DNA of 64,000 nt from Candidatus Methanogaster sp. (GTDB taxonomy: Archaea > Halobacteriota > Methanosarcinia > Methanosarcinales > Methanogasteraceae), in NCBI GenBank assembly GCA_013572355.1, contig QBUV01000091.1:950-64949 (forward strand), given 5' to 3'. Under the pieces are notes generated by a model. It did no database searches. It worked only from the letters and a program-made list of their open reading frames with translations, and had not been told where the DNA came from. Shown here one piece after another: positions 4,930 through 42,685 of this stretch; position 1 is the first letter of the stretch; every line of letters starts with the position of its first letter. The position numbers and the translations under genes are program-made.

Positions 4930-6147
4930 ATGAATAAGAAGATAATATTACCGTTTGTCGCAATTCTTGTACTGGCTGTAGCTATGGTTGGCGCAGCGAG
5001 TGCGGATGAGGTGACAACGGTGGATACGGTTGAGGTCCGCGGCAATGTGGCAAACGCCACACAAGCAAATGCTGGTATCAACTGGACTGCACAGGATTTC
5101 GCTGCGTTCTGGTACGATCTTGATGACGATCTGTCAACAGAGACTCTTGAACTCATAGGTGGTACATCCGGTACTGATCGAAACATAGCTGATGACCAAC
5201 TGGTTTACACCACATATCCGGAGCATCAATTGTACGAGCTTTACGCTGACAAAGGGTTAGTCGTAGAGGGTGACGATACGAATCTATCAATCGGATACTA
5301 CATCGAAGGCTGGCTGGCAGAGGAGTACGTAGCAGTCAACGGCAGAGCAGATGAACTCGTGAAACTGTTGGTTGAGTTCGAGGGCGATGACAAGAAGACC
5401 CTGTCAACCGGTGAGGCATGGGATCTTGGAAACGGATTTGCCCTTATTGCTCAACAGATCGATCTCGAAGGTGACAAGGTGTGGTTCTCGCTGGAGAAGG
5501 ATGGCAAGGAATTGGATAGTGAAGTTGTCACAACCGGTGCCGATATTACGAATGAATCAGTGTACACCTACACCGAAGACATAGGCAGTGAAGATGACGT
5601 TCCAGTGTTTTCATGCCTTGTTGATGCTGTGTTCAGAGGAACGGACAGCAATATCGTGCAGGTTAGGTATGTCTTCCTAGTCGATAATGTGGTTTTGGAG
5701 ATCGATAGTGACGATAAGTTCGGTGCAATGGAAGCTACCGCAGGTCCGACCATGATCACACTTAGGAATGAGGATGCTATCGATCTAGGCAAAGACACCA
5801 CTGAGCACATCATGGGCAACATGTACTTCAAGACCGCGGATGATACTGCACTCAGGTTCTATCCGATGGTCGAGTACACCATCGGCGAGGGCGCAGCAGG
5901 CGAAGCTGAGGAAGAGGTCGAGACTCCAACCGATGCTAACGAGACTGCGGATGTGAACGTAACTCCGACCGCTGTAGTCACGCCAACGCCTGAAGAGGCA
6001 GCATCACCTGTAGTGACAGCAACAGCTGAAGATACCACAGCAGATGCTGAAGAGACCGCAACCCCGAAGACTCCAGGTTTTGAGGCAGTCTTCGCAATTG
6101 CCGGACTGCTCGCAGTCGCATATCTTGTGCTCAGACAGCGAGAGTGA
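4930..6147 (+). CDS. Surface (S-layer-type) protein with signal peptide, S-layer duplication-type domain, Thr/Glu/Ala-rich linker and PGF-CTERM anchor
   Basis: Signal peptide MNKKIILPFVAILVLAVAMVGAASA. The WTAQDFAAFWYDLDDDLSTETLEL region is typical of methanogen S-layer-related domains. C-terminus PGFEAVFAIAGLLAVAYLVLRQRE = PGF + TM + basic tail. Confidence 0.85.
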   Translation: MNKKIILPFVAILVLAVAMVGAASADEVTTVDTVEVRGNVANATQANAGINWTAQDFAAFWYDLDDDLSTETLELIGGTSGTDRNIADDQLVYTTYPEHQLYELYADKGLVVEGDDTNLSIGYYIEGWLAEEYVAVNGRADELVKLLVEFEGDDKKTLSTGEAWDLGNGFALIAQQIDLEGDKVWFSLEKDGKELDSEVVTTGADITNESVYTYTEDIGSEDDVPVFSCLVDAVFRGTDSNIVQVRYVFLVDNVVLEIDSDDKFGAMEATAGPTMITLRNEDAIDLGKDTTEHIMGNMYFKTADDTALRFYPMVEYTIGEGAAGEAEEEVETPTDANETADVNVTPTAVVTPTPEEAASPVVTATAEDTTADAEETATPKTPGFEAVFAIAGLLAVAYLVLRQRE

Positions 6148-6684: not shown

Positions 6685-7926
6685 TTAGTGGTGGCGGCAA
6701 TTACCTGACATGCATCCTCCCGACCCCCCTCCCATCTTCTCGATGGCTTCCCCGATGGTGCCGGCATCGGTCTCCCCAGACTCCACGTAAGCATCGTCCA
6801 GGACATAAAACGCGCTCTTCTGCGCGATGCTATCCTTTGTGATCAGTTTATCTATCCTGTTCTCGACCAGCAGTTCGGCGGCTTTAAGCCCTTTCCGCTT
6901 CTCCAAGGTGGCAAACGGATTTTTCAGGAACCGCATATCGGCAAGATCGTTATCCTCTCTTCGGATATCAAATATGCAGAAATATTCCGCCTCCCCGAAG
7001 TGCCTGGAGATTTTGGACAGAAGACCGTTGTTCTCGATGCACGGGACCGCATACCTTGTAAATTCCCTCTCCTCTGGCTCTATATGTATCAGGACCCGAT
7101 CAACATTTTTTATCTCGGATTTGATCCTATCTTCGATCTTATCGCTCAGTTGGTGCGCCCGTTTAAGATCTGTGAGGTTCGTACCCACATCCATCTCGAT
7201 AAATATGAACTTCCCCGAACTCCTCGCTCTTAAGGAATATATCTTCTCGACACCACGAGTTTCGGACGCGATCTCCCTGATCCGGTTGAGACTCTCATAA
7301 TCGATGGATGCGTCCAGGAGAACCTTTATCGAATCTTTTAGTATCCCGGATCCTGCTTTGAAAATGAAGAGAGCGATCAGAATACCGGCAGCCGAGTCAA
7401 GGAAATAGAAACCAAGATAGTTTCCAAGTATTCCAGCGAATACGACTGCGGAAGAGTAGGCATCTGTTCTTGAATGCTTGCCATCAGCGATTAAACTGGG
7501 TGAATTTTCCTCTCTCCCGATCTTAAGCTTATAATTGCTTAAAAGCCAGGATGACACCAGGGATACCAGTGCGACTGAGAGTGCAAACGGAAGATCTGTC
7601 AGGATAACCGATCCGACCGCCGATCCGATCGATGTGCGAATAATCTCGTACCCGGCATAAAGGATCGCAAGAGCGAGGAAGAGACTTACGATATTCTCTG
7701 CCTTGTAAAATCCGTAAGGAAACTCCTCTGTGGGCGTGCGATCCGAGATCTTAAGACCGATGAAGACCGCGATGGAACTTATCACGTCTGTGAGTGAGTG
7801 GATCGCATCAGCGATGAGGGCGATACTTCCCGAGAGCATTCCGGCAGCGTATTTTATGACCACCAGAAATGCGGTCACTCCTATCGACACCAGAGCTGCT
7901 CTCTTATCCCTGCCTACGCGGATCAT
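6685..7926 (-). CDS. Cation diffusion facilitator (CDF) metal efflux transporter fused to a C-terminal NifX/NifB-like (dinitrogenase FeMo-cofactor-binding family) domain
   Basis: N-terminal 6-TM CDF core (LIADAIHSLTDVIS, HSRTDAYSS) plus the cytoplasmic CDF CTD (..VEKIYSLRARSSGKFIFIEMDV..HIEPE). An extra about 115 aa follows with ISRHFGEAEYFCIFD...GLKAAELLVENRIDKLIT, like HFG.a..F.i.d small NifX-family proteins. Tail GGGSGGCMSGNCRHH. Confidence 0.8.
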   Translation of the reverse strand: MIRVGRDKRAALVSIGVTAFLVVIKYAAGMLSGSIALIADAIHSLTDVISSIAVFIGLKISDRTPTEEFPYGFYKAENIVSLFLALAILYAGYEIIRTSIGSAVGSVILTDLPFALSVALVSLVSSWLLSNYKLKIGREENSPSLIADGKHSRTDAYSSAVVFAGILGNYLGFYFLDSAAGILIALFIFKAGSGILKDSIKVLLDASIDYESLNRIREIASETRGVEKIYSLRARSSGKFIFIEMDVGTNLTDLKRAHQLSDKIEDRIKSEIKNVDRVLIHIEPEEREFTRYAVPCIENNGLLSKISRHFGEAEYFCIFDIRREDNDLADMRFLKNPFATLEKRKGLKAAELLVENRIDKLITKDSIAQKSAFYVLDDAYVESGETDAGTIGEAIEKMGGGSGGCMSGNCRHH

Positions 7927-17882: not shown

Positions 17883-19043
17883 ATGAGCCCAAATATGGGG
17901 CAGGTGATCTTTATGGGGTATAATCCAATATCAGGCTCGGTCATATTCAACGCTCTGAAGGATGAAAAGTGCATACTAATGGCGTGCAACACCCGGATCA
18001 TTCCCGGTGTAACAACAGGTATTTTCAGATCCGCAAAGGATCTCGATTCTGCTATCTTAATCGAACTGGCAAAGTCGGAGTGCAATCTTAAAGGCGGGTA
18101 CACCGGGCTTACTCCCGCGGAACTCTCGATGCGGACTTATGCAGCCGCAGGGTCGGTTGGTCTTGATGTCTGGGCGCTACATGCGGATCACATCGGTGTC
18201 AAGAAAGGGACTGTGGAAGAACTTAATTCGGTTAAGGAGCTGATCGCAGCGCAGATCGATGCTGGTTTTACCAGTTTTGCGATCGATGCCTCGCATCTCT
18301 TCAATTTCGATGGGCGGGACACGGCAGAGGAGCTTGCACCAAACATCGATGCAACGATCGAGCTTGCGCGGTTCATCGAGTCAGAGATGGATGGGCGCGA
18401 TTTCGGGCTGGAGGTTGAGGTCGGCGAGATCGGGAGGACTGGCGAATCCGGAATGGTTCTGACGACACCAGAAGAAGCGGTGGTCTTTATCAGCTCGCTA
18501 AATGATGCCGGAATATATCCGCAGGTGCTTGCTATCGCAAACGGCAGCACGCACGGAAACATCTTTGACAAAAACGGCAACCCGATCGAACAGATCAGCA
18601 TCGACATCCTGCGGACGAAAGAGGTGGCAAAAGCACTCCGGGACAATAATTTGGATGTGCGGATCGCGCAGCACGGCATCACAGGCACGCCGCGGCGGAT
18701 GATTGCGGAGCAGTTCCCGCATGGTGATATCATCAAAGGGAACGTCGGCACCTTCTGGATGAATCTGGTCTGGGACGTCCTCAAGGAAGAGCAGCCTGAC
18801 CTGTACCAGCGGATATGGGACTGGACGCTTACGAATTATTCGGCAGAGGGGAAGAGCGATGTCGAGGTATTTGGCAAGAACGGCAAGTTTGCGATAAAAG
18901 AGTTTTTTAAGGAGCTTTATTCTCTCGGCGATGAGACTGTATCGGTAATCGAGGATCGGGCATACGAAGAGGCGGGCGAGTTTATCAGGGCGTTTAAATC
19001 CGAGGGGTCTGCCGAGATCGTGCGGGAATATATGCGAGCATGA
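17883..19043 (+). CDS. Class II (metal-dependent) ketose/fructose-bisphosphate aldolase family protein
   Basis: LHADHIG, AGFTSFAIDASH, EVEVGEIG, ANGSTHGN, QHGITG follow the class II aldolase motif order. Start codon uncertain (alternative internal Met codons). Confidence 0.7.
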   Translation: MSPNMGQVIFMGYNPISGSVIFNALKDEKCILMACNTRIIPGVTTGIFRSAKDLDSAILIELAKSECNLKGGYTGLTPAELSMRTYAAAGSVGLDVWALHADHIGVKKGTVEELNSVKELIAAQIDAGFTSFAIDASHLFNFDGRDTAEELAPNIDATIELARFIESEMDGRDFGLEVEVGEIGRTGESGMVLTTPEEAVVFISSLNDAGIYPQVLAIANGSTHGNIFDKNGNPIEQISIDILRTKEVAKALRDNNLDVRIAQHGITGTPRRMIAEQFPHGDIIKGNVGTFWMNLVWDVLKEEQPDLYQRIWDWTLTNYSAEGKSDVEVFGKNGKFAIKEFFKELYSLGDETVSVIEDRAYEEAGEFIRAFKSEGSAEIVREYMRA

Positions 19044-19711
19044 AATCAGTAATCCTCCTCTCCTCCGGACTCGACTCCGCAGTCGCGTTCAAGCACGCAT
19101 ACGACCGCTGCTCGGAACTTCTCGCGCTCACCTTCGATTACGGGCAGCGGGCAGCCGCGAATGAGATCAAGCACGCAATCCGGATCTGCCGCAAGTTCGA
19201 TGTGCCGCACGAGGTGATCGAACTGCCATGGATCAGGCAGTTTGGGGGTGCGCTCACCGATGCGTCCGCGCTGCCAGAGCTTGCGGAGCATGAACTGGAT
19301 GATGGCGGGGCTGCTGCGGATTCAGCGAGACGCGTCTGGGTTCCGGCAAGGAATCTTCTATTTCTATCGATTGCGGCAGGATATGCAGAGGATCGTGGCT
19401 ACGAGCTCATCACAGTTGGTTTTGATGCTGAAGAAGCAGCAACGTTTCCGGATAACTCTTCTGAATTCGTTGAACGGTTCAACAGGGTGCTCGAATACGG
19501 CACACTTAAGCCACCTACAATCGACGCGCCGCTCCTAAACCTCGATAAGGCAGAAATCGTCCGTCTCGGAGTGGCGATCGACGCGCCGCTCGGGCTGTCG
19601 TGGTCGTGCTATGAGTCAGGCGATCTGCCGTGCGGGGTCTGCGAGTCGTGTCTCAGGCGTGCGCGGGCGTTTGCCAGGGTTGGGGCGAAGGATCCGGGGT
19701 TGGGTATATAA
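19040..19711 (+). CDS. queC: 7-cyano-7-deazaguanine synthase
   Basis: ILLSSGLDSAVA PP-loop. C-terminal Zn cluster SCYESGDLPCGVCESCLRR. Confidence 0.9.
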   Translation: MKSVILLSSGLDSAVAFKHAYDRCSELLALTFDYGQRAAANEIKHAIRICRKFDVPHEVIELPWIRQFGGALTDASALPELAEHELDDGGAAADSARRVWVPARNLLFLSIAAGYAEDRGYELITVGFDAEEAATFPDNSSEFVERFNRVLEYGTLKPPTIDAPLLNLDKAEIVRLGVAIDAPLGLSWSCYESGDLPCGVCESCLRRARAFARVGAKDPGLGI

Positions 19712-29495: not shown

Positions 29496-29550
29496 TCACA
29501 TACCAACTACCAACTATTTTTGAGAGCATGCATACTCGATATACGGCACT

Positions 29551-29750
29551 CGGAAACACGCAACGCCGTCTATCCACTCCTCGCGCACGGGTTCTGTGCA
29601 CCGGTTGTATTGACCATACTGCCTGTTCGTTATTTCGTTGTCGCCTTTCGTGATATATCCGGCGTGCGGCGCAATCGGACCGCTATCCCACATCGGCTCA
29701 CCCGTACTTCCGGTACGGGATCACGTTACCATAGTCGCCAAACGTTTCGT
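29551..29750 (-). pseudogene. Partial, decayed duplicate of the adjacent signal peptidase I gene (internal fragment, frameshifted by a 53-nt deletion)
   Basis: 29551..29700 aligns to 29891..30040 and 29701..29748 to 30094..30141 of the intact gene. The 67-nt core 29615..29681 differs from 29955..30021 at a single position. Confidence 0.85.
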
Positions 29751-29817: not shown

Positions 29818-30405
29818 CTATGCGGATTTGCCAGTAAGTGTCTCGATCACCTTTGAGAACGCGAGGCGCACATATCCGGCATAAGGTATACGGAAACGCG
29901 CAACACCAATCACCCACTCCTCGCGTATGGGCACGGTGCAGAGGGTGTGTTGATCATACTGCCTGTTCGTTATTTCGTTGTCGCCTTTTGTGATATATCC
30001 GGCGTGCGGCGCAATCGGACCCCCCGCCCACATCGGCTCGCCTGCCTCAACATGGTACATTGCGCGGTGTATGATCGGAGTTACATCGGTTCGCCCGTAC
30101 TTCCGGTACAGGATCACGTTACCATAGTCGCCAAACGTTCTGTAGTCGCTGATCGCGCCTTCCTCTTGTGTAACGACACTGGTGCGTGATATGTCCTTAA
30201 TAAAGACGATATCCCCTTTCTTCATGTGCGGTTCCATGCTTCCGGACTCAATCGCCCGCATCGGCGCCCATGTCCCGAATATGAGCTGGGATAGGATCGC
30301 AAATATGAGGAGTATCTTTGCAACCGATATGAGGTCGCGCAAGACCCCTGCCAACGTGCTATCGCTCTGGTAAAATTCTTTTATTTGATCGAAACGTTCA
30401 GACAT
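29818..30405 (-). CDS. Signal peptidase I (archaeal/Sec11-type S26 family)
   Basis: N-terminal TM anchor, then AIESGSMEPHMKKGDIVFIKD (catalytic Ser in SGSMEP) and a conserved His region (PIIHRAMY). Start taken at MSERFDQ (30405); the listed ORF extends to 30447. Confidence 0.85.
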   Translation of the reverse strand: MSERFDQIKEFYQSDSTLAGVLRDLISVAKILLIFAILSQLIFGTWAPMRAIESGSMEPHMKKGDIVFIKDISRTSVVTQEEGAISDYRTFGDYGNVILYRKYGRTDVTPIIHRAMYHVEAGEPMWAGGPIAPHAGYITKGDNEITNRQYDQHTLCTVPIREEWVIGVARFRIPYAGYVRLAFSKVIETLTGKSA

Positions 30406-30521
30406 TAATATAATAGCAGTCCAGCATGATACATAAAACTTGTTCAATACCGATGCGCTATGTTAAAATATCGTGGGCGCGAATGTAATGACATAGAGCA
30501 CCAAGGAGGCATTCGTCGGCT

Positions 30522-31538
30522 ATGAAGCGCATAACATATCTGGTCCTGATCATCGGCATGGTTGTATGCGCAACCGCTCTTAACGGCTGTATCCGCCATG
30601 ATGATGCGTCTCAGGTGTCTCCACCCGGCGGTAGTACATATCTCAACTCGACAAACATCGACTGCGTGGACTGCCATGCAGTGCAGTATTTTGCCATAGA
30701 GAACGGGAGCGGCAGACATGCACCTCTGAACTGCACCTTCTGCCATATCCAGCATGGATATCAGCCAGACTGCCTGACCTGCCATCCTGATACGCATGGC
30801 ACAGGCATTCAGGGGTGCGAGATCTGCCATCCGAACCCACATGCTCCGGAGTTGCGGATCAATGATTCGCGTCTTAACGACAGTATATGCCAGCCATGCC
30901 ATCTCCCGCAGTACGATGCAATCGATAAGGGCACAGGCAGGCACTCGAAGTTAAAGTGCGATCTATGCCATGTCCAGCATGGCTACCTGCCCTCCTGTGA
31001 AGACTGCCACGGACTGTTTCATGGCAGCGATGTCACGGGCTGCGACGACTGCCATGATCCGCATGTGCCAGAGTCGATCGAATTTGATTACGGCAACAAT
31101 AGCGAATGTGCGCGATGCCACCACTCAGTCATCGAAGAGACGTTTGCGAGAGAGCATACAGTACATGCCGATTTGTCGTGCTATATGTGCCATCCGCTAC
31201 ATGCAGAGACGATGATGTGCATCGACTGCCATCCAGGGCACAGTACCGGGATGAGTATGCGCAACTGCCGCAACTGCCACCGGATCGGGCATGTGCCAAC
31301 CGACATCCTGTACTCCCCAGACGCCGCCGAAACTAAGTCCGGACTATGTGTGAACTGCCATGCAAAGCCGTTTAACACGATGTATGAAAGCGAAAGTGAG
31401 CACCGGTACATCGAATGCGTGGAGTGCCATCCCGCGCATGACGCAACCGTCGCGTGTGATGCGTGCCATACACAGGATCCGTCTCACGGGACTGAGTGCG
31501 TAGCATGTCACGATTCTGCGCACGACACGATCCCATAA
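30522..31538 (+). CDS. Multihaem c-type cytochrome-like lipoprotein, 16 CxxCH motifs in four tetrahaem-like modules
   Basis: Signal peptide with a lipobox-like LNGC. 16 CxxCH counted directly in the 338-aa translation. Regular extra His residues fit bis-His ligation. Confidence 0.8.
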   Translation: MKRITYLVLIIGMVVCATALNGCIRHDDASQVSPPGGSTYLNSTNIDCVDCHAVQYFAIENGSGRHAPLNCTFCHIQHGYQPDCLTCHPDTHGTGIQGCEICHPNPHAPELRINDSRLNDSICQPCHLPQYDAIDKGTGRHSKLKCDLCHVQHGYLPSCEDCHGLFHGSDVTGCDDCHDPHVPESIEFDYGNNSECARCHHSVIEETFAREHTVHADLSCYMCHPLHAETMMCIDCHPGHSTGMSMRNCRNCHRIGHVPTDILYSPDAAETKSGLCVNCHAKPFNTMYESESEHRYIECVECHPAHDATVACDACHTQDPSHGTECVACHDSAHDTIP

Positions 31539-35947: not shown

Positions 35948-36583
35948 ATGGCTACCCAACAATTGGAGGTAATCATGAGATTAAAAGATATTGTGCTAAT
36001 CGTGGCAGTCGCGTCACTGCTACTATCATCAGGATGTATCGGGCAGGATGAGAAGGTTGTCGACAGCGACGGCGATGGATGGGACGATGAACAGGAACTG
36101 GTTGCCGGAACCGATCCGAACAATGTGGATACCGATGGCGATGGTTACTGGGATTCAAAGGATGAAAACCCACTCGATCCGAACATACCGGCCCCAAGGG
36201 AAACGCCGACGCCGGTAGAGGCGGCTACACCGATACCACGACCTACCACATCAGCCACACCGACCATAACTCATGTATTCGAGATCACCGATCCTGCGGA
36301 TGGGGATAGCGTTCCCCGTTTAATCGATGTCAGAGGTCATGGCGGCATGCCCGGCGCAAAGGTCAGGATTCATGTCTACATTGAAGATGAAGGAGATATT
36401 CTTCGACCCGCCGTAGGGTATGTCGACGAGGACGGTAACTGGGAAATAGAGGATATTGGACTATGGGACGTTACAGGGTACACAATAGGGGACGAGGCTA
36501 TGATCTATGCGGTGATGACTGTTTCACAAGCGGGTGACACAATTATACGTGCTTCCGAGAACGTCACGGTGTACCGGGTATAG
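35948..36583 (+). CDS. Secreted lipoprotein-like protein with thrombospondin type-3-like Ca-binding repeats
   Basis: Signal/lipobox LLLSSGC. DSDGDGWDDEQELVAGTDPNNVDTDGDGYWDSKDENPLDPN. Pro/Thr linker, then a beta-rich C-terminal domain. Confidence 0.65.
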   Translation: MATQQLEVIMRLKDIVLIVAVASLLLSSGCIGQDEKVVDSDGDGWDDEQELVAGTDPNNVDTDGDGYWDSKDENPLDPNIPAPRETPTPVEAATPIPRPTTSATPTITHVFEITDPADGDSVPRLIDVRGHGGMPGAKVRIHVYIEDEGDILRPAVGYVDEDGNWEIEDIGLWDVTGYTIGDEAMIYAVMTVSQAGDTIIRASENVTVYRV

Positions 36584-41560: not shown

Positions 41561-42685
41561 ATGACTGGTAGCAGAATGACAGTATTAATGCTCATAGCTG
41601 CTGCGATGTTTGTGACGAACGCGGGTGCGATATCGGTTGCAGAGGATGTGACATTTATCGGAAGTTACGACACCGGAATTGCAAGTTACGTTGCTGTGTC
41701 AGGTAACTATGCGTACGTAATCGATGAGACTAATGGTCTTGTGATTGTGGATGTCAGCGACAAGGAGGCACCAGTGGTTGCAGGAAGTTACGACGCGGTA
41801 GAAGATGCATGTTCTGTTGCGATATCGGGTAACTATGCGTACGTAACTGATAAGTACGACGGTCTTGTGGTTCTGGATGTCAGCGACAAGGAGAAACCAG
41901 TACGCACAGGGAATTACGATGTCAGGGGATATGCACGTGCTGTTGTCGTGTCAGGAGATTATGCGTACGTAGCAGATCGTAGTAATGGTCTTGTGATTGT
42001 GGATATCAGCGACAAGGAGGAACCAGTGTGTGTAGGACGTTACAGAGTCGCAAGAGATACGTATGGTGTTGCTGTATCAGAGGACTATGCGTACGTAGTC
42101 GATTATAACAACGGGCTTGTGATTGTGAATGTCAGCAACAAGGAACAACCCGTGCTTGCAGGAAGTTATAACCTGGAAGGGTGGTCTGTGGGTGTTGCTG
42201 TGTCAGGTGACTATGCGTACGTAGCCAGCGGATCGGAGGGTCTTGCAATCGTGGATGTCAGCGACGCGGGCGCGCCAGAGCTTGCAGGAACTTACGACGC
42301 CACACCCCATGTGGAGACTGTCATCGTGTCGGGCGACTATGCGTATGTGACCGATACGGATAATGGTCTTGCAATCGTGGATGTCAGCGACGCTGAAGCA
42401 CCAGAGCTTGCAGGAAGTTATGACACCGACGGGGATGCTCATGCCGTTGCCGTGTCAGGCGACTATGCATACGTAGCTGATGGTGGTAAAGGTCTCGTTA
42501 TCCTGCAGGTAGGCGCCACTGCCACGCCTACCCGCGTCGCTGCGACCGTGTCACCAACGACGCAAACAGCGGAAACGACGCAAACTCCTGCGAAGAGTCC
42601 GAAAAGTGAAGGACCTGGATTCGGGGGCGTGTTCGCAGTCGCGGGTCTGCTTGCAATTGCATACCTGATGCGGCGGCAGGGATAA
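41561..42685 (+). CDS. LVIVD-repeat beta-propeller surface protein with PGF-CTERM anchor
   Basis: Signal peptide. Seven about 42-aa repeats (SGNYAYV.D..NGLVIVDVSDKE.PV.AGSYD). Thr-rich linker. C-terminus PGFGGVFAVAGLLAIAYLMRRQG. Confidence 0.85.
   Translation: MTGSRMTVLMLIAAAMFVTNAGAISVAEDVTFIGSYDTGIASYVAVSGNYAYVIDETNGLVIVDVSDKEAPVVAGSYDAVEDACSVAISGNYAYVTDKYDGLVVLDVSDKEKPVRTGNYDVRGYARAVVVSGDYAYVADRSNGLVIVDISDKEEPVCVGRYRVARDTYGVAVSEDYAYVVDYNNGLVIVNVSNKEQPVLAGSYNLEGWSVGVAVSGDYAYVASGSEGLAIVDVSDAGAPELAGTYDATPHVETVIVSGDYAYVTDTDNGLAIVDVSDAEAPELAGSYDTDGDAHAVAVSGDYAYVADGGKGLVILQVGATATPTRVAATVSPTTQTAETTQTPAKSPKSEGPGFGGVFAVAGLLAIAYLMRRQG
41693..42510 (+). repeat. Seven tandem about 126-nt coding repeats (LVIVD blades)
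   Basis: Recurrent DNA blocks such as gactatgcgtacgta...ggtcttg(t/c)(g/a)at(t/c)gtggatgtcagcgac. In frame within the CDS. Confidence 0.8.

Follow-up and report, generated by a model that had tools for sequence, protein, structure and literature searches.

A predicted sixteen-haem cytochrome c with a lipobox-like N-terminus, encoded beside type I signal peptidase genes in an ANME-2c archaeon

Introduction

What does a gene for an exported protein with sixteen haem-attachment motifs do in an archaeal chromosome that carries the genes of methanogenesis? The question is raised by an open reading frame (ORF) located near the middle of a 64,000-nucleotide stretch of contig QBUV01000091.1 (assembly GCA_013572355.1, Candidatus Methanogaster sp.), the whole of which is referred to here as the window. 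A sequence-only reading of this DNA had described the ORF product as a lipoprotein made of four tetrahaem-like modules, had regarded it as surprising in what was taken for a methanogen-type host, and had proposed that it acts as an electron conduit outside the cytoplasm. The analysis reported here indicates that the gene encodes a cytochrome that has not been described before, with sixteen predicted haems, and that it is the kind of gene to be expected in its actual host, an anaerobic methanotrophic archaeon (ANME) of the ANME-2c group.

A Cytochrome of Four Tetrahaem Modules

The ORF (Table 1) translates exactly into the 338 residues previously given for it, and a regular-expression count of CxxCH motifs returns the same sixteen, at residues 48, 71, 84, 99 / 123, 146, 159, 174 / 196, 220, 233, 249 / 276, 299, 312, 326. 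The spacing between them forms a four-fold repeat (23,13,15 / 23,13,15 / 24,13,16 / 23,13,14). The protein contains 34 Cys and 35 His, with 19 of the latter lying outside the motifs. As the remainder of the window, read in six frames (~128,000 codons), holds just 5 isolated CxxCH, a cluster of sixteen is far beyond chance. All 16 motifs are kept in 7 orthologues, with ratios of nonsynonymous to synonymous substitution (dN/dS) of 0.14-0.27, from which it follows that the gene is functional and under purifying selection.

The four modules do align with one another, as had been proposed, but the description of modules 1 and 2 as nearly superimposable was an overstatement. These two form the closest pair, with 45% identity (30% if Cys and His are not counted), and the other pairs share 29-36% (6-18% without Cys and His).

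The criterion for membership of the class III cytochromes was the Pfam gathering threshold, which a score had to reach or exceed. The protein reached 38.4 bits with PF14537 (Cytochrom_c3_2; cutoff 25), 27.2 bits with PF14522 (Cytochrome_C7; cutoff 24.8) and a borderline 22.9 bits with PF02085 (Cytochrom_CIII; cutoff 22.9), so that profile searches, which the earlier reading had recommended, do place it among multihaem c-type cytochromes. No specific NCBIfam model came near its cutoff, and neither a non-cytochrome Pfam domain nor a C-terminal helix was found in the protein.

When 42 homologues are aligned, each CxxCH proves invariant or almost so, as do exactly 16 further His, four in each module, in agreement with the bis-His ligation that had been anticipated. 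Alignment of the modules gives the consensus C-x2-CH-x13-H-x4-C-x2-CH-x2-H-x5-C-x2-CH-x3-H-x6-C-x2-CH-x3-H. No conserved Met, no CxxCK and no haem site devoid of a distal His were seen among the 42 homologues. Given one conserved distal His per haem and the lack of conserved Met and of CxxCK, the sixteen haems are likely to be low-spin bis-His electron-transfer centres, with the proximal His supplied by CxxCH and the distal one by the 16 additional residues. The protein is very probably a real sixteen-haem cytochrome c, and we infer that its motifs are loaded with haem.

Table 1. Cytochrome gene, its parts and the adjoining signal peptidase genes, in window coordinates
Feature	Position	Strand	Remarks
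sip2 remnant, tandem signal peptidase	29531..29746	-	C-terminal half only; frameshifts, stop codons
sip1, archaeal type I signal peptidase	29818..30405	-	Probably 195 aa from ATG 30405; mechanical ORF extends to TTG 30447
Divergent intergenic region	30406..30521	.	Shine-Dalgarno-like AAGGAGG at 30503-30509; AT-rich TATA-like TTAAAATAT at 30463-30471, a putative promoter element
16-CxxCH multihaem c-type cytochrome gene	30522..31538 (incl. stop codon)	+	ATG start, 338 aa; identified by Pfam matches and orthologues
Signal peptide	30522..30590	+	MKR, hydrophobic core (~17 residues), lipobox-like end LNG-Cys23; read from sequence
Low-complexity linker IRHDDASQVSPPGGSTYL	30591..30644	+	~18 residues; length and sequence vary among homologues
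Tetrahaem module 1	30645..30863	+	Residues 42-114; CVDCH, CTFCH, CLTCH, CEICH; distal His66, 78, 92, 107
Tetrahaem module 2	30864..31082	+	Residues 115-187; CQPCH, CDLCH, CEDCH, CDDCH; distal His141, 153, 167, 181
Tetrahaem module 3	31083..31319	+	Residues 188-266; CARCH, CYMCH, CIDCH, CRNCH; distal His215, 227, 240, 257
Tetrahaem module 4	31320..31535	+	Residues 267-338; CVNCH, CVECH, CDACH, CVACH; distal His294, 306, 322, 334

The Host and Its Physiology

Homologous loci were retrieved by a scan of one genome per species. Orthologues of the cytochrome with 86-93% identity were present in 'Candidatus Methanogaster sp. isolate E20ANME2', in an 'uncultured ANME-2 cluster archaeon' and in metagenome-assembled genomes (MAGs) of Methanosarcinales, the orthologue of E20 ANME-2c (locus L005) being 89% identical. 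The genes around the cytochrome in these loci, which encode ribosomal proteins, RpoD, Pus10, L11 and aconitase-family proteins, keep their order and have identities of 90-99%. 'Candidatus Methanogaster' corresponds to the Methanogasteraceae, that is, to ANME-2c, a lineage inside the Methanosarcinales (naming according to PMC10553843).

The host of the window is an ANME-2c anaerobic methanotroph running reverse methanogenesis, and not a cytochrome-free methanogen. The methanogen-type framing under which the find had seemed surprising was mistaken, given amino-acid identities of 86-96% between ANME-2c MAGs and the products of the ORF and its neighbours. The occurrence in the window of mch (PF02289 match) and of other methanogenesis-type genes is accounted for by the host being an anaerobic methanotroph. 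Multihaem cytochrome genes are 5-8 times more numerous in ANME genomes than in those of their methanogenic relatives, and ANME genomes carry CcmABCEF (PMC9012536). For the E20 ANME-2c genome, 12 c-type cytochromes have been reported, with up to 32 haems in the expressed ones (PMC5947290). The main surprise of the find thus disappears, because an ANME-2c host belongs to a group known for its many multihaem cytochromes.

The lack of cytochrome c maturation (ccm) genes in the 64-kb window, which had been remarked upon before, was reproduced with a WWD-motif regular expression and with tblastn using the CcmE of locus L030, and it is uninformative about the genome as a whole. On the contig of a 67%-identical homologue (P0003), a CcmE with the archaeal Cys-x3-Tyr motif (CPSKY) lies 8 kb from the cytochrome gene. 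In this 67%-identity clade ccmE (L030 1313-1711, minus strand) directly adjoins a gene pair for QueC and a fructose-bisphosphate-aldolase-like protein, and the same pair occurs at 17883-19711 of the window, with no ccmE beside it. Recent horizontal acquisition of the cytochrome gene beside tRNA-Leu was considered and rejected, the gene having a G+C content of 54% against 53% for the window and the arrangement being common to all ANME-2c-like MAGs.

N-Terminus and Membrane Anchoring

The N-terminus of the protein, MKRITYLVLIIGMVVCATALNGC, starts with MKR followed by a hydrophobic stretch, both of which are kept across the family, and the lipobox-like LNGC noticed in the first reading is indeed there. 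Its Gly-Cys is conserved in relatives: Gly(-1)-Cys(+1) appears in 9 of the 13 rows of the N-terminal alignment (A1), even where the hydrophobic core differs, the exceptions being the two Methanoperedenaceae-type proteins as well as P0013 and P0004, the last of which has a misaligned row but also reads SGC. The query has L-N-G-C where most archaeal relatives have x-S-G-C, and Asn at position -2 is atypical, falling outside the archaeal lipobox consensus [L/V/I][A/S/T/V/I][G/A/S]C (PMC12462473). LNG-Cys23 is immediately preceded by A-T-A, a possible cleavage site for type I signal peptidase.

The linker that follows has AlphaFold2 predicted local distance difference test (pLDDT) values <50 at residues 22-35, and from this model it is probably a flexible tether. 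Taken together, signal peptide, Gly-Cys and disordered linker have the predicted layout of a tethered lipoprotein. Because of the atypical Asn at -2, lipidation at Cys23 is given only a modest preference. Euryarchaeota are predicted to contain many lipobox proteins. The enzymes that lipidate them, AliA and AliB, have been identified recently, and no peptidase has so far been assigned to the cleavage of archaeal lipoprotein signal peptides (PMC12462473).

In Methanoperedenaceae homologues the lipobox and module 1 are replaced by an N-terminal transmembrane helix that runs straight into the first CxxCH. This helix implies that the Methanoperedenaceae branch is held at the membrane as well, and to judge from these N-termini a membrane-proximal role fits the whole archaeal family. 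The helix-anchored homologues of this group (ANME-2d) are P0008, P0011 and P0022, and a 210-aa cytochrome gene precedes that of P0008 (L032 824-2645). The ANME-2d helix form may be a quinol-oxidising variant of the tetrahaem-repeat family. A NapC/NirT-like interpretation of this N-terminus was rejected, the PF03264 match of P0008 being below the Pfam threshold (19.9 bits, cutoff 24.1); in the Pfam scan of the query cytochrome PF03264 was absent.

A Family Common to ANME-2 and Desulfobacterota

A search with the single sequence returned 20 relatives and a profile search 777. The family uses one tetrahaem module three, four or five times. Sixteen-haem forms occur in ANME-2c-like archaea (52-89% identity to the query), in Methanoperedenaceae (about 35-39%) and in many Desulfobacterota (28-33% over the full length, E = 1e-77 to 1e-91); one of the 12-haem forms is from Desulfuromonas acetoxidans, and a single 20-haem form was found. 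A rough, midpoint-rooted neighbour-joining tree places the ANME-2c-type and Methanoperedenaceae proteins as sister groups, apart from the bacterial clade. The family is unnamed and has no solved structure.

The Desulfobacterota cytochromes with 12, 16 or 20 haems (P0021-P0070, for example from Desulfobacteraceae, Desulfobulbaceae and Desulfuromonas acetoxidans) are true homologues (E 1e-39 to 1e-91), built from the same module with the same motif and distal-His spacing. They differ in being bacterial and in having ordinary signal peptides. On two of their contigs (L025 3382-5520 and L026 6895-9158) a 12-haem paralogue with a lipobox (FVAC or AWGC) is followed by the 16-haem gene in a two-gene operon, near which LolA and Asp/Glu racemase genes are also found; the 16-haem gene has no signal peptidase gene next to it there. 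The Desulfobacterota are the phylum of the syntrophic partners of ANME-2. Identification of the bacterial homologues with the 16-haem cytochrome of the SEEP-SRB1 operon was tried and discarded: in the operon of Skennerton et al. that cytochrome stands alongside a 26-haem cytochrome, a beta-propeller protein and a peptidyl-prolyl isomerase, and the two contigs show a different, two-gene operon.

Some archaeal loci of the family carry further genes close to the cytochrome. Directly after the cytochrome gene of the 58-60% identity clade comes a conserved ORF of 151 aa that gives no Pfam match (L013 7412-7867; L014 2081-2536) and that the window does not have. About 3.5 kb downstream of the cytochrome in the 63%-identity clade lie genes for an EpsH-family exosortase/archaeosortase-like protein and an EpsI-like protein (L034 14503-16112; L035 13495-15104), adjoining genes for an LTD-domain protein and for glycosyltransferases.

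Comparison with Known Cytochromes

Matches to proteins of known structure are patchy and dominated by the haem motifs. The best was chain A of 6r2q (E = 2e-11, compositionally biased), followed by GSU1996 of Geobacter sulfurreducens (3ov0, E = 8.6e-9) and by partial matches of the full-length query to Desulfovibrio HmcA (1z1n, 2e84, 1h29, 1gws; E = 3.6e-6 to 1e-4), whereas the OmcZ-type 7lq5 and OmcS gave E = 0.0024 and E = 0.17, respectively. With a profile of a single module the best match in the PDB was HmcA, with a whole-chain E = 8.5e-9 and a best single-domain E of about 1e-3 (0.0016). AlphaFold2 models, which contain no haems, reached a pLDDT of 75 and a predicted template-modelling score of 0.50 for the whole protein, and a pLDDT of 82 for module 1 alone.

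We take 6R2Q to be the Shewanella MtrCAB complex, in which the label 'Cystathionine beta-synthase' on the CxxCH-rich chain A is presumably wrong, and the match to be with MtrA. The points of likeness are that MtrA forms an elongated haem wire, has bis-His ligation throughout and contains little secondary structure. It differs in having ten haems and no tetrahaem repeats, and it works inside an outer-membrane porin, which archaea lack.

GSU1996 shares with the window protein the arrangement of small c7/c3-type modules in tandem on one chain of similar length, and the profile match (query 46-334 against chain 25-317), patchy and motif-driven as it is, covers nearly all of both. It is a dodecahaem protein with four three-haem c7-type domains, each of which has one His-Met haem, whereas the present protein has four four-haem modules, all predicted to be bis-His, and no conserved Met. 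HmcA, too, carries sixteen haems and is of class III (c3-like) descent. With 514-560 residues against 338 it is the larger protein; it has unequal domains where the window protein has four equal modules, and forms part of the hmcABCDEF operon, while no hmc genes lie near the cytochrome studied here, whose neighbours are genes for signal peptidase, Pus10 and L11.

Closest in setting are the multihaem cytochromes of ANME that are not part of the S-layer (PMC9012536, PMC5947290), with which the protein has in common an ANME-2c origin, secretion, richness in CxxCH, a probable single membrane anchor, a proposed role between membrane and S-layer and a link to a signal peptidase gene. The papers on ANME highlight an 8-haem OmcZ homologue, a widespread group with 4-8 haems, a 7-11 haem partner of VhtC-like cytochrome b and the MHC-A, -B and -C proteins with 20-80 haems (PMC9012536, PMC5947290). 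The anchors described in these papers are C-terminal helices or PGF-CTERM, in contrast to the N-terminal lipobox-like motif seen here. MHC-A, -B and -C have an S-layer domain, a peptidase M6-like domain or a pectin-lyase-like domain, A and B also having a C-terminal transmembrane helix (PMC9012536); the window protein, with its sixteen haems, has neither a non-cytochrome domain nor such a helix. AmcB, the VhtC-like cytochrome b partner (S3 Data, PMC9012536), has a gene that adjoins cytochrome b in ANME-2a/2b and lies elsewhere in ANME-2c; on the comparison that its description alone allows, a count of sixteen haems is outside its range of 7-11. The window genes that were examined did not include one for cytochrome b. 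Neither a description of this 16-haem, four-module protein nor one of its pairing with signal peptidase genes was found in PMC9012536 or PMC5947290. Peptides of the cytochrome were not found in the supplements of Chadwick et al. either, a weak negative in view of the gaps and line breaks in the aligned files.

The Signal Peptidase Genes

The divergent neighbour of the cytochrome gene is, as first read, a type I signal peptidase gene with a partial duplicate. The product of sip1 scores 57.2 bits with TIGR02228 (cutoff 51.85) and keeps the Ser motif ESGSMEP and the His motif IIHRA; its homologues are 195 aa long. The tandem copy, sip2, has decayed to a pseudogene in the window, where its remnant is 82-95% identical in nucleotides to 29871-30139 of sip1 (direct repeats D1 and D3). 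Three other loci have an intact tandem sip2 at this site, coding for 173-191 aa (L004 8724-9218; L005 8107-8601; L034 8614-9189). Within one genome, sip1 and sip2 differ in their N-terminal halves and hardly at all in their C-terminal halves, a pattern that suggests gene conversion between the two.

The pairing of sip and cytochrome genes is observed in three contexts. In all ANME-2c-like loci the pair lies between rpoD, tRNA-Leu, Pus10 and L11; in the 58-61% identity clade it is found with adenine deaminase, thermosome subunit and GrpE genes; and in the 63% identity clade it occurs with FtsZ and an archaeosortase-like gene. The 67% identity clade (L030, L008) has no adjoining sip gene. Among the homologues listed, sip1 shares 56-66% identity with signal peptidase I from Methanolobus, Methanosarcina and related Methanosarcinaceae. 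In the two genomes considered, Methanolobus zinderi and Methanosarcina sp. Mfa9, the gene of this enzyme is located beside that of the DNA polymerase D small subunit with no cytochrome nearby, so that the linkage to the cytochrome is specific to the lineage. The idea that sip1 is a divergent, cytochrome-specific paralogue was abandoned, this identity and gene context making it look like the ordinary enzyme, relocated or duplicated.

In ANME-2a, 2b and 3 a signal peptidase gene has also been reported next to the cluster that holds CcmF2 and MHC-B, and its product has been proposed to mature cytochromes (Chadwick et al., PMC9012536). By analogy, the sip/cytochrome arrangement may be the ANME-2c counterpart of that cluster. 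A more ambitious proposal would treat sip2, sip1 and the 16-haem gene as a dedicated unit, in which one or both sip paralogues would be specialised for the lipobox cytochrome, and perhaps for other multihaem cytochromes, one of them might be the missing archaeal lipoprotein signal peptidase, and the cytochrome would be a structurally new tetrahaem-repeat wire common to ANME-2 and Desulfobacterota. As a whole this combination is improbable.

Proposed Role and Alternatives

In the proposed mechanism the cytochrome would be exported by the Sec pathway and loaded with haem by Ccm, and the mature protein would most likely be anchored to the membrane through a lipid attached to Cys23. Beyond the flexible linker of ~18 residues, the four tandem tetrahaem modules would form one continuous haem chain. 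Electrons from methane oxidation would enter this chain via the membrane methanophenazine:cytochrome c oxidoreductase or via small cytochromes, and would then pass across the space below the S-layer to the large S-layer cytochromes and on to the sulfate-reducing partner. The proposal follows the published model of extracellular electron transfer in ANME. In line with it, the extracytoplasmic electron conduit put forward in the sequence-only reading was judged reasonable, and the more specific role of membrane-tethered sixteen-haem relay may be said to have an even chance.

Several points weigh against this role. Cytochromes with many haems have been found to be expressed below those with 4-8 haems, and their importance has been questioned (Krukenberg et al., PMC5947290). 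The Asn at -2 lies outside the classical lipobox consensus, and this, along with the A-T-A site upstream of it and the pairing with a type I signal peptidase, keeps release as a soluble protein a live option. Structure searches with the whole-protein and module 1 models gave no significant neighbour, and since the AlphaFold2 model is of moderate confidence and free of haem, the linear-wire geometry stays conjectural.

The strongest competitor is a released cytochrome, in which sip would cut at A-T-A and the protein would work as a diffusible shuttle or as part of a conductive extracellular matrix linking ANME to partner cells, possibly as an OmcS/OmcZ-like polymer. Such a fate would give a reason for the type I signal peptidase pairing (one or two genes) that is kept in three unrelated contexts and for the AxA-like site just before Gly-Cys; Chadwick et al. 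link signal peptidase to cytochrome maturation clusters of other ANME and discuss matrix cytochromes (PMC9012536), and haem-rich intercellular material is known from the consortia (PMC5947290). However, what is retained where the hydrophobic region differs is Gly(-1)/Cys(+1), a lipobox-like and not an AxA-like feature, and a free conserved Cys beside 32 haem-attachment Cys would be hard to explain in a released protein. The Methanoperedenaceae homologues are anchored by a helix, and the likeness to OmcS, OmcZ and other filament cytochromes does not go beyond generic motifs. On balance release is unlikely, yet it is the alternative that should be taken most seriously.

The cytochrome could also be mainly an electron store and not an obligatory link in the chain, its sixteen low-potential haems retaining electrons for as long as the partner is unable to take them up. 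GSU1996, its distant match, has been discussed as a capacitor or a nanowire, and the haem density of the window protein (16 haems in ~300 mature residues) would suit a capacitor too. Sequence does not separate storage from relay, and the two roles are mutually compatible, but a membrane anchor and a conserved single-copy gene fit a defined position in the chain, which makes storage as the main function decidedly improbable.

That the protein is instead a multihaem enzyme, catalysing for instance the reduction of metals or of sulfur or nitrogen compounds, is very improbable. The weak profile matches that speak for this, with octahaem nitrite reductases, hydroxylamine oxidoreductase and NrfH, are motif-driven, with Foldseek E values of 0.95 or worse, and the protein, which has no non-haem domain, offers a conserved distal His for every haem, no CxxCK and no candidate for a penta-coordinate site. 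Finally, a non-haem protein whose Cys/His pairs bind Zn or Fe-S, an outcome that homologues might have revealed, can practically be dismissed, as nothing was found in its favour and the motif is strictly CxxCH (not CxxC) at 16/16 positions, each with its matched distal His, in a protein with a signal peptide and cytochrome c families above cutoff, with homologues in Desulfobacterota annotated as cytochrome c, and with a host lineage that has Ccm.

Other Features of the Window

A few additional genes of the window code for surface or membrane proteins. The 211-aa product of 35948-36583 (plus strand) contains a calcium-binding repeat of the TSP3 type, has LLSSGC at the end of its N-terminus and may be a second lipobox protein of the window; it is just 68-82% identical between MAGs, with neighbouring genes above 90%. 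Two cell-surface proteins with PGF-CTERM archaeosortase signals are encoded at 4930-6147 and 41561-42685 (both plus strand), namely an S-layer protein (227 bits with PF07752) and a seven-repeat LVIVD beta-propeller. At 6685-7926 (minus strand) lies the gene of a cation diffusion facilitator (CDF) efflux transporter with a C-terminal fusion to a domain of the dinitrogenase FeMo-cofactor-binding type (PF02579).

Concluding Remarks

With its host recognised as ANME-2c, the sixteen-haem protein leaves the picture of which archaea have cytochromes unchanged. What makes the locus noteworthy is the unnamed tetrahaem-repeat family common to ANME-2 and Desulfobacterota, together with the conserved tandem sip genes and the putative lipobox anchor. 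Anaerobic oxidation of methane removes much of the methane of the sea floor and is thought to need cytochrome-based transfer of electrons from ANME to their bacterial partners. For the part of this transfer that leads from the membrane to the S-layer conduit, the protein described here is a concrete and conserved candidate carrier, apparently tethered to the membrane.

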